A DNA stretch of 64,000 bases, taken from contig JAHLVW010000099.1 of NCBI GenBank assembly GCA_019058275.1, forward strand, positions 1 to 64,000, written 5' to 3'. Positions 30,944 through 38,157 of this stretch are shown here, piece after piece. The translations under genes were made by a program, and so were the position numbers. Source of the stretch: Candidatus Heimdallarchaeota archaeon. Its GTDB lineage: Archaea; Asgardarchaeota; Heimdallarchaeia; JABLTI01. The notes under the pieces are model-generated. The model saw only the letters and a list, made by a program, of their open reading frames with translations, had not been told where the DNA came from and did no database searches. Each line of letters opens with the position of its first letter. Positions within the stretch are counted from its first letter, which is position 1.

Positions 30944-31024
30944 AAACAAAACTAGTTCCAACTGAAGGAACTAAAACCGGATGGAGGTAAACAAACTCCC
31001 ATCGTTGTAGAAGAAGGTTTTAAG
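30944..31024. repeat. Cassette-boundary repeat R1 (diverged)
   Basis: Core at 30973: aaaaccggatggaggtaaacaaactcccatcgttgtagaagaaggttttaag. Confidence 0.75.
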
Positions 31025-31222
31025 TGGGGGGAGAATACTAGAAATTTTCTTTTCTGAAATGTAGGCATTTAGTAATTTATTTTTTATTGTAAATCATAGT
31101 AAAAATTGTTCGGAACAGTTTCTAAACTATCATTAGAGATGTTTTAAAGAAAATAATGAGTATATATTATTCAAGAATTAAATAAAAAGAAGGCAAATTT
31201 AAAAAAAACATGAGGAAAAGAA

Positions 31223-32479
31223 ATGAGAGGTAAAAACTCGATCACTGTTTTGATGATAATATTATTTCTTTCGATAAATAGCTTACTAGTAGCTGGTTAT
31301 GATAATAATAGAAGTGAAAGTGCTAAACCAAATAATATAATGGTAACTTACGCTTCTATATTTAGTGTAAAAGATGATTATCTAATGATTTCAGATGATG
31401 TTATGATGGGTGGATCTCAACCAAGAGATTTTTGGATTTTAGATTATAGCAATCCAAACAAAACAGAAATCATCGGAGGATATCTCCTAAATTCTAGTGG
31501 ATATTTACTATCAATGAGCACTTTTGGTGATTTGTTATTCTTATTGTGCAAGTATGATGACCCCTATTATGCAACAGGTTTTGAAATTGTTAATATAAGT
31601 TCAATAGACTCTCCAGAATATTTAGGACATTACGTAGCAAACGACTCATATGGATGGTGGCATGATCCTAGATATAATAGTCTAGAATTACTTCGATTCA
31701 AAGATAATTACGTTTTTATGTATACATCGTTAGTAACTTCAGAAACTCAACAAATCAGAATTATTGATTGTCAAAATATGACTAATATAACAGAAGTTAA
31801 TACAATTGCATCCACAAATAGGATTTTAGATTTTGATATTAAAGATGATATTATGTATATCAACCAAGTAGAAAGCAAAATGGAGATGATTAATATAAGT
31901 GACATAACAAATCCAACCAAAATTTCTTCTTGGAATTCAACTGGTACCATAAGTATGGATATTTATGAAGATAGACTCTATTTATTCAACTTTGACGAAC
32001 GAAAATTAGATATTTATAGCTTAGAAAATGCTACAAATCCAGAATATATCACTACAATAGAAAAGGATGAAAATACCCAATTCTTTGTAACAAATCTAGT
32101 ATTCACAGATGAATATTGTTTTGTAATAAGTGAAGATATGGTAGATATTTTAGATATCTCAGATTTAACAATTTTAAATAGCTATAAAGTAGAAGATTAT
32201 ATTTTAGAAGATGAATATGGGGGCTTTTTCTACGGACAAGTAGGAAATGAAAAATTGTTTGTTGCTAGAGAGTCTAACAAATGGGGTTTAACCTTATTTG
32301 TAATAGGTTTTTCAGATATTAATAATTTAGAAACTTGGATACCATATTGGACACCAACATCTCCAATAGCAATAACTCCAATGATTTATGGAATAATCAT
32401 TAGCACTTGTTTGTTGACAAGTATGTTCATTAAGAAAATAGCTCAAAGAAAGGGAAAAACAAAGGAGAGGAAAGAATAA
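31223..32479 (+). CDS. Secreted LVIVD-like beta-propeller protein with C-terminal anchor (cargo 1)
   Basis: Repeats FEIVNISSIDSPEYLG, INISDITNPTKIS, IYSLENATNPEYIT. Confidence 0.75.
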   Translation: MRGKNSITVLMIILFLSINSLLVAGYDNNRSESAKPNNIMVTYASIFSVKDDYLMISDDVMMGGSQPRDFWILDYSNPNKTEIIGGYLLNSSGYLLSMSTFGDLLFLLCKYDDPYYATGFEIVNISSIDSPEYLGHYVANDSYGWWHDPRYNSLELLRFKDNYVFMYTSLVTSETQQIRIIDCQNMTNITEVNTIASTNRILDFDIKDDIMYINQVESKMEMINISDITNPTKISSWNSTGTISMDIYEDRLYLFNFDERKLDIYSLENATNPEYITTIEKDENTQFFVTNLVFTDEYCFVISEDMVDILDISDLTILNSYKVEDYILEDEYGGFFYGQVGNEKLFVARESNKWGLTLFVIGFSDINNLETWIPYWTPTSPIAITPMIYGIIISTCLLTSMFIKKIAQRKGKTKERKE

Positions 32480-32499
32480 CCACACAATGAATATATCAA

Positions 32500-32583
32500 A
32501 AAATACTTAGCTCAAAACCAATAACACAGAATTAAACTGGTCGGAGGTAAACCAGTCCACGTCGTGGGAAAAGGAAGTTAAAA
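32500..32583. repeat. Cassette-boundary repeat R2 (hairpin degenerate)
   Basis: Core at 32533: taaactggtcggaggtaaaccagtccacgtcgtgggaaaaggaagttaaaa. Confidence 0.8.
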
Positions 32584-32639
32584 TGTACAGATTTAAAATT
32601 CAGATAATTAAAAAAATAAAAGAAATATTCTTACTAGAT

Positions 32640-33146
32640 TCATTTAATATCTGAAGCTGATATAATAGCTTGAGTTGGAATATTTCGTAAGCAATGAGGA
32701 CAAAAACCTTTAGTTTTAATCCACTCAAAAAGATGTGTGAAATGTCCAATTGATTCACAAAGACTACATTTTCCAACATCATCTCCAAATGAGATAGGTA
32801 ACTTACAAACTATACATCTAAGTTTTCTTTTTCCACAATCTGAACAAAATTCACTATGCATATCGAGAGGATAACCACACCAAAAACAAGTTTGATGTTT
32901 TGATTCAGTATAATCTATATTTACAAGTTGGGAAGATGAATGAGTAATTAGTGAATCTTTAGTTTTTCTTTTCTTTACAAATAATAGAACAAAAACACCA
33001 ACTATAGTAAATAATCCAACAATAGCAATTATTGGCCAGGTGGATACATTTGGATTTCCTCTATTATAAAAGAAAGCAAAAATACCACCTAAAAGTGTTA
33101 GAATCAATCCACCAACAGTTACTGTTATTGCTTTATGATTAACCAT
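32640..33146 (-). CDS. Two-TM protein with zinc ribbon plus RING-like domain (cargo 2)
   Basis: CFWC..CSDC then CIVCKLPISFG..CSLC....H..H..EW....CPHC. Confidence 0.8.
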   Translation of the reverse strand: MVNHKAITVTVGGLILTLLGGIFAFFYNRGNPNVSTWPIIAIVGLFTIVGVFVLLFVKKRKTKDSLITHSSSQLVNIDYTESKHQTCFWCGYPLDMHSEFCSDCGKRKLRCIVCKLPISFGDDVGKCSLCESIGHFTHLFEWIKTKGFCPHCLRNIPTQAIISASDIK

Positions 33147-33230
33147 TATTTTCCTTCCTACTTTAATTCAAGCTAATATTCAGTTGATCAATAAAATAAA
33201 TTTAAACATAACTCTGGAAAATTGAATTAT

Positions 33231-36147: not shown

Positions 36148-37107
36148 TTAAATGAGCGTGAGTGCTCTTCTTGAGTTCTCTGTGATAACTTTATAGATGA
36201 TTTCCTGATCAATTCCTTCCTTTACACAGTACGGAATAAATGTATCAAAAAATGTAGCATATGGTCTCATATTTTGGTTCTTATTTTCTTCTCTGTTCTC
36301 TTTAATCTTAAAAGAACCTGAATCTTGACCAAATAGTAGCTGACTAATCAAACGCTCTTCTATTATTTTCCTTATAGCTGGAGGATATTTTTCAAAGGAC
36401 TCTGCACCAGCTATTCCGTCAAATTCTATCCACATTCCTTTCTTTGCAACTTCAAGTATTAATGAAACATCCATTTTTGCATCTGCATGAACCCAGATAA
36501 AATTATCAAAGGGTAAGTTCTCTTCCTCAAGAATTTTAAAAACTCGTTTTACACATGGTTCATTCAAAACATGGCATTGGATTCGAAGACCAGTTTCTAA
36601 ACTTGCTTTAATGGCTGCACGAAGTAGCTTATCTTGTAAAGGAAAAATTTCTCCTTCATCACCAAGAGCCATCTTAATGAAACCAGGTTTTGTTCCAGTA
36701 TTATCTATTCCTTCTTTAAATTCCTTTATCCAAATGGAAGCAATCTCATCAATTGTTTTTTCCTTAATATCTTTTGGAACACCTTTTCCTCTAACATTAA
36801 AACCATCCCATGCACCCGTACATGTGATAATATTCAATCCAGATTTTTTAGCACATTGCTTTAAAACATCTAAATCTCGACCAAGTCCAAAAGGAGTTGC
36901 TTCTACAATAGTTGAACATCCCTTATTTTTCACATCAATCAAATATGGTAAAACAAAATCAACGACCTCATCAGTTGTATATGTTTTCTCAACCAAGTTT
37001 ATACCATTCAAATCCACTAAAATATGCTCATGCATTAATGTTACACCTAAATCTTCTTCAGAAATAGGTCCTATTACAGTATTAATCATTACAGTCAATT
37101 CCCTCAA
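36148..37107 (-). CDS. Phosphotriesterase-family amidohydrolase (cargo 4)
   Basis: TVIGPI...LGVTLMHEH, TIVEATP.GLGRD, PGFIK, HAD, IEFD, GQD. Confidence 0.92.
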   Translation of the reverse strand: MRELTVMINTVIGPISEEDLGVTLMHEHILVDLNGINLVEKTYTTDEVVDFVLPYLIDVKNKGCSTIVEATPFGLGRDLDVLKQCAKKSGLNIITCTGAWDGFNVRGKGVPKDIKEKTIDEIASIWIKEFKEGIDNTGTKPGFIKMALGDEGEIFPLQDKLLRAAIKASLETGLRIQCHVLNEPCVKRVFKILEEENLPFDNFIWVHADAKMDVSLILEVAKKGMWIEFDGIAGAESFEKYPPAIRKIIEERLISQLLFGQDSGSFKIKENREENKNQNMRPYATFFDTFIPYCVKEGIDQEIIYKVITENSRRALTLI

Positions 37108-37176
37108 AATATCTATTTCTAAAGTGTTTCAGTAATATAAAATTATTCAGACCAATCTTGGATTAATAAATCAATA

Positions 37177-37260
37177 AAAAAACAGTCGCAAAACCAAAAG
37201 CACAGAATTAAACCGGACGAGGGCAAACCAACCCCTGTCGCGGGAAAAGGGGAGTTTAGA
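37177..37260. repeat. Cassette-boundary repeat R5
   Basis: Core at 37209: taaaccggacgagggcaaaccaacccctgtcgcgggaaaaggggagtttaga. Confidence 0.9.
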
Positions 37261-37391
37261 TGTTTGTATGTTCGATAAAAACTACTATTTTGTTCTTTCA
37301 CATCAAAATAGAACCCACGAATATGTATTCTTCTTTATCTTTAATTAAACAAAATTAGCAAAACAGTTACGACAAGATACTTATTACGAAT

Positions 37392-37751
37392 TTATTGCCA
37401 AAATCGAATTGCATCTTTTTGCAATATTAATAAAAAGTGTTGAGAGAGGTTATATTTCCATTCATCTAGCAAGTCTATTAGCCTAGGTTGAATGAAATTA
37501 ATAATTGCTGGTTCAATTGCTAAATAAATAACTTGAATTTTATGTTTTTTCCAGAGAAAGGTGAAATCCTTATCACGAGTAACAAAAACATAATTATTTT
37601 ATTTCACCATATTCGATAGCTCACAGTTCTTAATACCAGACCAACCTTCTGTTTGAACAGTAGTACAAAATAAACCATGATCGTCAAAAATTTTTTTGAG
37701 TTGTAGTGGAACGTTTTCATCTAGTAGAAACTTCACTTTCTTTAGAACCAT
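37392..37751 (-). pseudogene. DUF5615/Mut7-C-like PIN-domain toxin with in-frame TAA at 37599-37601 (cargo 5)
   Basis: Manual translation MVLKKVKFLLDENVP...GWSGIKNCEL...K*NNYVFVTRDKDF; overlaps the DUF433 gene end; not in ORF track. Confidence 0.85.
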
Positions 37752-37968
37752 AAATAACAACCTCACCTGCAATCATTTCTTTAGCATATGTGATTATCTC
37801 TTGAATATCTTCTCGAGTAATGGTAGGAAAATTTGCTAATATTTCTTCAAAGCTTTTTCCTTCTTTTAACCAATCAAGAATATCTAACACTAACACTCGA
37901 GTACCTTTAATGGTAGGTTGTCCTCCGCAAATCTCAGGATCGCGGACAATACGTTCAAATTTGCTCAT
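37717..37968 (-). CDS. DUF433 antitoxin (cargo 5)
   Basis: RIVRDPEICGGQPTIKGTRV...EEILANFPTITREDI. Confidence 0.93.
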   Translation of the reverse strand: MSKFERIVRDPEICGGQPTIKGTRVLVLDILDWLKEGKSFEEILANFPTITREDIQEIITYAKEMIAGEVVIYGSKESEVSTR

Positions 37969-38074
37969 ATGAATTCCACTCTAATATACTAATAAGCAAC
38001 TTGCCTTAAATTAATACCTTTCTTTTGCATAACAAAATTATTACGAGAGAGCAAAGAATAGGTTTGAACCCCAA

Positions 38075-38157
38075 GAAACAAAACTCAAAACCATTTTAGT
38101 CAAATCAAAACCGGACGAGGGCAAACCAGCCCCCGTCGCGGGAAAAGGGAGTTTAAA
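38075..38157. repeat. Cassette-boundary repeat R6 (closest to consensus)
   Basis: Core at 38107: aaaaccggacgagggcaaaccagcccccgtcgcgggaaaagggagtttaaa. Confidence 0.9.

Follow-up and report, generated by a model that had tools for sequence, protein, structure and literature searches.

How Asgard archaea, the closest archaeal relatives of eukaryotes, gain accessory and bacterial-type genes is an open question, and a locus of a Candidatus Heimdallarchaeota archaeon (GCA_019058275.1) offers a testable route. The 64,000 nt analyzed here (contig JAHLVW010000099.1, positions 1–64,000; hereafter the window) carry six copies of a hairpin-forming repeat, with unrelated genes between them. An earlier reading based on the letters of this DNA (the sequence-only reading) had taken the locus for an integron-like array of gene cassettes in an Asgard archaeon, and this host assignment, to the Heimdall group, is supported by the GTDB lineage (JABLTI01). 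What the repeat is, whether the genes between its copies move and by what means are the questions addressed below. From its sequence features we conclude that the repeat corresponds to the 3′ end of an undescribed structured small RNA (sRNA), the gene for which heads the array. Single genes (hydrolases, methyltransferases, binding proteins, surface propellers, toxin-antitoxin pairs) appear to be slotted behind this RNA gene, and a recent move from one species to another is seen for one or more of these units. Integron-like capture by site-specific recombination at the sRNA 3′ end is the reading that we prefer, with a probability of roughly 0.55.

A Local Array of Co-oriented Repeats

All sequences used are those of metagenome-assembled genomes (MAGs) or metagenome contigs. 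The six repeats are 91-nt units on one strand (minus), with start-to-start spacings of 1560, 730, 2678, 1268, and 898 nt. Their places and spacings are those of the sequence-only reading, and a 41-nt repeat consensus is expected 0.00 times in shuffled sequence when three or fewer mismatches are allowed. Two covariance models were built, one from the six window copies (model R1) and one of the whole sRNA (model R2). Neither a profile hidden Markov model (HMM) nor the covariance model found a seventh copy in the window, which agrees with the earlier observation of no further copy there, and the repeat-free part of the island (21752–30939) yielded none even with the search speed filters off. Across the rest of the genome (4.12 Mb in 118 contigs, the array contig being labeled C94) the same two methods recovered only two weak relatives, at C22:147329–147420 and C42:24153–24244.

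Folding of the repeat depends on the strand. A 12-bp bulged hairpin forms on the minus strand (−13.9 kcal/mol, vs. −8.4 kcal/mol for the other strand), the advantage arising because G·U pairs are used. In an alignment of 42 copies, comprising internal copies and about ten intact first copies, the hairpin positions pair in 88% of cells and compensatory changes occur at seven pairs. Two other interpretations of the unit were rejected. A second dyad right after the U-tract, considered as the core site, is not conserved across the aligned copies, and a peptide encoded on the opposite strand is contradicted by the window frame (ATG, one codon, stop) and by the G·U pairs, which favor the minus strand.

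The Repeat as the 3′ End of a Small-RNA Gene

The hairpin had been regarded as an anonymous repeat, and this part of the sequence-only reading did not stand. First copies possess extra conserved 5′ sequence that is confined to them. In full, the predicted RNA consists of a 5′ stem-loop, an invariant single-stranded stretch, a 3′ hairpin and a U-tract (Table 1). Internal copies retain no more than the final ~12 nt of this stretch and continue through the terminator hairpin and the U-tract into a tail of ~35 nt, itself conserved across the repeat family; they have neither the sRNA promoter nor the 5′ stem-loop. The first copies are preceded by ~140 nt of conserved non-coding sequence in all eight genomes, whatever the upstream gene.

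The 5′ stem-loop comprises 10–13 bp, and its sequence varies among genomes while the pairing is kept. Covariation is seen at each of the 12 pairs of helix 1 among 21 full-length homologues; the positions of this helix pair in 93.5% of cells, vs. 72% after shuffling and ~50% with partners slid, and double-sided changes are found in 118 cells, vs. 37 after shuffling. Each homologue folds alike when folded individually. A putative archaeal promoter lies upstream, and the distance of about 22 nt between the end of its TATA box and the 5′ stem is kept in eight loci of the type found here (type A) and in four loci of a second type (type B, see below). Further upstream, a palindrome whose arms are invariant in the eight type-A loci and which is absent from type-B loci may be a regulator-binding site.

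Covarying structure, conserved promoter geometry and a terminator, the generic marks of a structured sRNA gene, are thus all present as judged from sequence alone. We conclude on these grounds that 38107–38220 on the minus strand represents the gene for an undescribed structured sRNA, and that repeats R1–R5 are 5′-truncated copies of its last ~50 nt together with the ~35-nt tail. Nothing in the window matches Rfam 15 at the gathering or a relaxed threshold, positions 37900–38500 give chance-level matches only (E ≥ 2.5), and the window contains no tRNA or tmRNA, the sRNA being neither one. A target search found no enrichment in the genome of k-mers complementary to the single-stranded core. The hairpin and U-tract probably also serve as a terminator for co-oriented cargo.

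Cassette Turnover and the Position of the Boundary

Comparison with relatives demonstrates that the units between repeats are gained, lost and repositioned, and that content and order break at the repeat; these elements of the integron-like interpretation hold. The closest relative, G004, shares 85% nucleotide identity with the window. Homology spans the cupin gene, the FG-GAP gene and the sRNA gene and ends at 38107, the last U. Past the equivalent position G004 has two cassettes, one with a short-chain dehydrogenase and one with a methyltransferase, both unrelated to the five cassettes of the window.

A recent event is recorded by the 2-kb cassette F26, which has a single open reading frame (ORF) of 624–627 aa. 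Its copies in G005 and G007 are 97.8% identical over 2037 bp, compared with 84–86% for anchors on the same contigs, and the cassette is the first of the array in G005 but the fourth in G007, where its neighbors differ. At its right end, near-identity continues through the next hairpin and ends exactly after the U-tract; at its left end, it starts 0–10 nt past the U-tract, and the hairpins to the left differ. A presence/absence pair was found at locus A in the metagenomes of one sample series, where the sRNA gene occurs alone or followed by a 1.9-kb cassette and a second repeat. The downstream 9.5 kb of both forms are 100% identical, and the variant is delimited by the repeat. A cassette is therefore made up of tail, cargo and a copy of the sRNA 3′ end, and the informative junctions locate the exchange just 3′ of the U-tract. 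Cassette boundaries in Table 1 follow this inferred crossover point, directly behind the U-tract of each hairpin.

Cargo also occurs without the repeat. Window positions 32614–33222 (zinc-ribbon cargo) are 75% identical to a repeat-less copy in G005, and 36137–37164 (phosphotriesterase cargo) are 82–85% identical to repeat-less loci in four relatives, where anchor genes reach 66–70%. The methyltransferase cassette of G004 likewise has a repeat-less homologue in another genome. These homologues sit in different surroundings, and homology stops at the edges of the 91-nt unit. Since the cargo is not syntenic with its repeat-less homologues, it is the genes that moved and not the repeat.

Window cassettes span 0.7–2.7 kb. 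Among the cargo labels of the sequence-only reading, Pfam matches bear out the substrate-binding protein (SBP_bac_5), the phosphotriesterase and the DUF433 antitoxin. The proposed toxin is only a truncated DUF5615 fragment, since its match is restricted to profile positions 2–39 of 110. The RING label for 32640–33146 is backed by sub-threshold zinc-ribbon matches only, and the LVIVD label for 31223–32479 fails, the product having no Pfam match. In the type-B array L149, at about 2120–2130, a cargo gene ends in a stop codon that reaches into the opening bases of the following repeat, which makes this a cassette without spacer. With 47 copies from all arrays pooled, T exceeds A by 0.09–0.13 on the repeat strand for at least 800 nt after the repeats and by ~0 before them, whereas coding-strand skews are ordinary in the window's cargo genes.

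Distribution and Chromosomal Platform

Model R1 matched nine of ten genomes of the genus and the one genome examined of the sister genus, with co-oriented clusters alike, and none of 49 genomes from other families. With model R2 the sRNA was recovered from every one of the 12 genomes of the family (GTDB JABLTI01), and 71 genomes representing six other families of the class gave no match. Better-assembled genomes hold two to five full-length sRNA copies each; three fragmentary genomes gave a single match. All relatives with the repeat are Candidatus Heimdallarchaeota MAGs, and in them it is limited to two loci. In the model scans the repeat is therefore clustered in the genome and its relatives, as the cassette interpretation had anticipated, unlike a scattered element. 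The sRNA constitutes a new structured family, confined to one family of Heimdallarchaeia and characterized by an invariant C/U-rich single-stranded core. The second conserved locus carries the paralogous type-B gene, which has the same architecture and another stem sequence, and which heads its own arrays with type-specific repeats in G005 and G007.

The arrays lie at conserved loci between syntenic anchors, while the cargo differs among species. The proximal anchor opens a block that reaches ~49992 in the window and is syntenic in seven relatives. Between the anchors the island measures ~2.5 kb in G006, ~9 kb in G008 and G010, which have one repeat copy each, and 18.5 kb in the window, where the content of 21752–30939 also varies among relatives. 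Gene maps place the FG-GAP gene between anchor and sRNA gene only in the window and in G004. Two peculiarities concern G006. Its sRNA has a 26-nt hairpin inserted in the otherwise invariant single-stranded stretch, with no cassettes behind, and at L046 (G006:C60, 9706–9852) the orientation of the sRNA gene with respect to the cupin anchor is reversed.

Table 1. Coordinates of the repeat array, the predicted sRNA gene and the surrounding island in the window.
Feature	Position	Strand	Description and evidence
Repeat R6	38074–38164	−	First copy, 3′ end of intact sRNA gene plus tail; model R1, 97 bits
Repeat R5	37176–37266	−	5′-truncated copy; 88.6 bits
Repeat R4	35908–35998	−	5′-truncated copy; 93 bits
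Repeat R3	33230–33320	−	5′-truncated copy; 83.1 bits
Repeat R2	32500–32590	−	5′-truncated copy; 82.7 bits
Repeat R1	30940–31030	−	Last, most degenerate copy; 79.3 bits
sRNA gene (type A, predicted)	38107–38220	−	~114 nt; covariance model R2, 138.7 bits
sRNA 5′ stem-loop	38181–38220	−	
sRNA single-stranded stretch	38142–38180	−	Invariant, C/U-rich, about 39 nt
sRNA 3′ hairpin	38111–38141	−	
sRNA U-tract	38107–38110	−	Four U
Putative archaeal promoter of sRNA	38243–38257	−	A-rich element like a B recognition element (BRE) 38251–38257, TATA box 38243–38250
Palindrome	38272–38289	−	5-nt arms, 8-nt spacer; upstream of promoter
Cassette 1	37209–38106	−	DUF433 antitoxin 37717–37968, intact; DUF5615/PIN-like toxin 37599–37772, truncated; Pfam
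Cassette 2	35941–37208	−	Phosphotriesterase-family gene 36148–37107; Pfam PTE, E = 6e-41
Cassette 3	33263–35940	−	Family-5 solute-binding protein 33912–35717, strand opposite to repeats; Pfam SBP_bac_5
Cassette 4	32533–33262	−	Small membrane protein 32640–33146, C-terminal zinc-ribbon/RING-like module; weak Pfam zinc-ribbon
Cassette 5	30973–32532	−	418-aa secreted-looking protein 31223–32479, opposite strand; ORF list
FG-GAP beta-propeller gene	38461–40155	−	Between anchor and sRNA gene; Pfam
Proximal anchor	40268–41191	−	Cupin 40268–40636, NTPase 40646–41191
Repeat-free part of variable island	21752–30939		DJ-1/PfpI, beta-lactamase-fold, two metallo-beta-lactamase (MBL)-fold, methyltransferase, bPH; Pfam
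Distal anchor	20147–21751		Response-regulator gene 20633–21751, EMC6-like gene 20147–20596

Proposed Mechanism and Alternatives

In the reading that we prefer, the array would have been seeded at the 3′ end of the lineage-specific sRNA gene. A cassette would comprise the ~35-nt tail, one or two cargo genes in either orientation and a copy of the last ~50 nt of the sRNA, and cassettes would enter and leave by site-specific recombination between sRNA 3′-end sites. With a crossover just 3′ of the hairpin U-tract, each insertion would therefore regenerate an intact sRNA gene and push older cassettes distally. The enzyme would be encoded elsewhere; we infer site-specific recombination through a circular intermediate, with the enzyme acting in trans.

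Several observations weigh against this scenario. No recombinase is linked to the arrays. Cargo is much more mixed in orientation than that of integrons (about 18 co-oriented and 12 opposite). For the metagenome presence/absence pair, L131/L137, an exchange on the 5′ side of the hairpin loop is the better fit than one after the U-tract, unless two events took place, and the repeat-less homology of the three cargo segments excludes the whole repeat, which leaves the origin of cassettes unexplained. Contigs from four DNA runs include a 99.6% identical strain in which the array is unchanged in content and order; turnover is thus not fast, and these contigs contain no trustworthy excision junction. 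Moreover, misassembly at the repeats is possible in MAG and metagenome contigs, including chimeric joins for F26. Two candidate joints in the contigs, 29720>37584 and 38263>31174, are supported by short, low-identity pieces and were not trusted.

The search for an enzyme covered several sets of sequences. A recombinase beside repeat hits, the neighbor that the sequence-only reading had suggested looking for, was not found on the array contigs or in the ~700 kb of loci. PF00589 has six matches in the genome, none of them on C94, and tyrosine, serine and Y1 enzymes (PF00589, PF00239, PF01797) are missing from C94 and from the array contigs of five relatives (G004, G005, G007, G009, G011). When the eight recombinases of this genome were compared by tblastn with ~700 kb of array and paralogue loci, no match was obtained, and no protein family recurs in the regions flanking sRNA loci A, B, and C. 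Three tyrosine-recombinase-like paralogues of ~485 aa (C20:4678–6123, C36:89402–90853, C78:31372–32841) share 33–34% mutual identity. The family is a poor candidate, occurring in four of the 12 family genomes and not found in G005 and G007, which have the largest arrays.

A related proposal, which we put forward tentatively, is that of a dedicated capture system that is not an integron, in which the site would be the terminator end of the sRNA, the cassettes would be free of recombinases, and the work would be done by an undescribed enzyme or an RNA-assisted mechanism. The same machinery might stack cassettes behind the tail of the 23S rRNA. For the 23S gene (C98:98488–102769), blastn gave about 50 copies of its terminal ~60 nt plus ~35 nt downstream on six contigs (C98, C35, C38, C80, C75, and C99); they have no obvious sequence likeness to the sRNA repeat. 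These organisms may stack cassettes behind genes for stable RNAs as a rule, a practice of which no published description was found in the literature.

The missing recombinase also speaks for an arrangement that needs none, in which the repeats would be mainly terminators or punctuation and cassettes would be swapped, deleted and duplicated by homologous recombination between 50–90-bp repeats after DNA uptake. Identity among the repeats is sufficient to recombine, and the L131/L137 pair fits a crossover within 29 identical nt 5′ of the loop. Against it, three informative junctions fall within ~10 nt of one point just 3′ of the U-tract, a point where family-level similarity drops and which does not lie inside the best-conserved core. 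Nor does homologous recombination explain how unrelated genes first gained tail and core; we regard it as less likely than site-specific recombination but as a serious rival. Serial integration of integrase-bearing elements into the sRNA gene, followed by loss of the integrases and most other genes, would likewise regenerate the targeted 3′ end of the stable RNA gene intact, leaving displaced fragments as co-oriented direct repeats, in agreement with the Islander description of tRNA- and tmRNA-gene islands (PMC4383910). Such a graveyard is nevertheless improbable: the cassettes are just 0.7–2.7 kb long, no integrase or other mobile-element gene, nor any recombinase, is encoded in ~45 cassettes across the arrays, and the recently moved cassette (98% vs. 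85% background) is already single-gene and integrase-free.

The remaining explanations dispense with cassettes. Were the repeats independent sRNA genes or promoter/terminator modules for their neighbors, with no role in DNA rearrangement, a terminator-like hairpin with U-tract and a TATA-like box at the 5′ edge of the unit would be accounted for, as would the co-oriented gene that follows each of four copies out of the six. Yet the internal copies are devoid of sRNA promoter and 5′ stem-loop, repeat orientation is constant whatever the direction of the neighboring gene, and copies coincide with homology breakpoints between genomes, all of which renders the idea very improbable. A selfish element spreading into intergenic spaces, like a repetitive extragenic palindrome (REP) or a miniature inverted-repeat transposable element (MITE), would also be a short, hairpin-forming intergenic repeat, but this is effectively refuted by the genome-wide distribution. 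The six strong copies of the genome all lie inside one 7.2-kb stretch, and the repeat is therefore local rather than dispersed; the two-locus restriction in relatives and the lack of synteny with repeat-less homologues tell against it as well.

Relation to Known Systems

Integrons are known from archaea, with an enrichment in the Asgard group; most of them are clusters of attC sites lacking integron-integrases (CALINs), the attC sites being canonical (Ghaly et al., 2022; PMC9668308). A CALIN with two attC sites, listed for a JABLTI01 MAG, flanks a pyridoxal phosphate (PLP) decarboxylase (PMC9668308). The decarboxylase loci of G007, taken as conspecific by GTDB species label and accession, and of the present genome hold no copy of the repeat. 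Integrons and CALINs share with the array described here co-oriented structured repeats that bound mostly single-gene, promoter-poor accessory cassettes, including toxin-antitoxin pairs, as well as cassette content and order that vary among relatives behind a fixed platform. In both, most of the site lies at the cassette 3′ end, the crossover is at the 3′ foot of the hairpin, and the hairpin has a conserved bulged base.

In contrast to integrons, there is no IntI gene here, and the platform is an sRNA gene instead of intI/attI. The repeat also differs from attC in the absence of R″/L″/L′/R′ boxes and of a GTTRRRY core: no R″/R′ (RYYYAAC ... GTTRRRY) or L″/L′ box pair overlaps any repeat, and DNA folds show a central 9–12-bp hairpin only. 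Box search and folds thereby support the earlier view that the site is not attC. Unlike that of attC, the stem is just 12 bp and conserved in sequence besides structure. As for Pc-like readthrough, the sRNA promoter faces the array, but the hairpin and U-tract of the sRNA itself come next, and ~40% of cargo is reversed, which is a further difference from integrons. If a specific recombinase were found, a site architecture so unlike attC would deserve attention in integron biology as well as in the building of tools.

Because the repeat is the 3′ end of an sRNA gene, the locus is as close to tRNA-gene integration hotspots as to integrons. The systems compared on this side are tandem islands at tRNA and tmRNA genes (Islander, PMC4383910) and the tycheposon-type islands of Prochlorococcus, which are reportedly linked to tRNA genes (bioRxiv 10.1101/2020.12.28.424599). 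Such islands have as their target the 3′ end of a stable RNA gene, which is regenerated, keep displaced 3′ fragments as co-oriented direct repeats and are expected to receive new insertions beside the intact gene, as here. They differ in that the present target is a lineage-specific sRNA and neither tRNA nor tmRNA, that the units are 0.7–2.7 kb without integrase and that crossover takes place behind the terminator instead of within a symmetric RNA loop. REPs and bacterial interspersed mosaic elements (BIMEs) resemble the repeat as short GC-rich hairpins between genes in AT-rich DNA; the copies described here are, however, not dispersed, point one way, derive from the 3′ end of a gene and match cassette breakpoints.

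Observations on the Flanking Genes

Two genes of the platform have features of their own. Positions 38971–39981 of the FG-GAP gene consist of seven 135-nt tandem units with 63–75% identity, which correspond to beta-propeller blades. In the distal anchor, 20147–20596 encodes a small membrane protein with a weak Pfam match (E = 3.3e-5) to EMC6, a eukaryote-type family.

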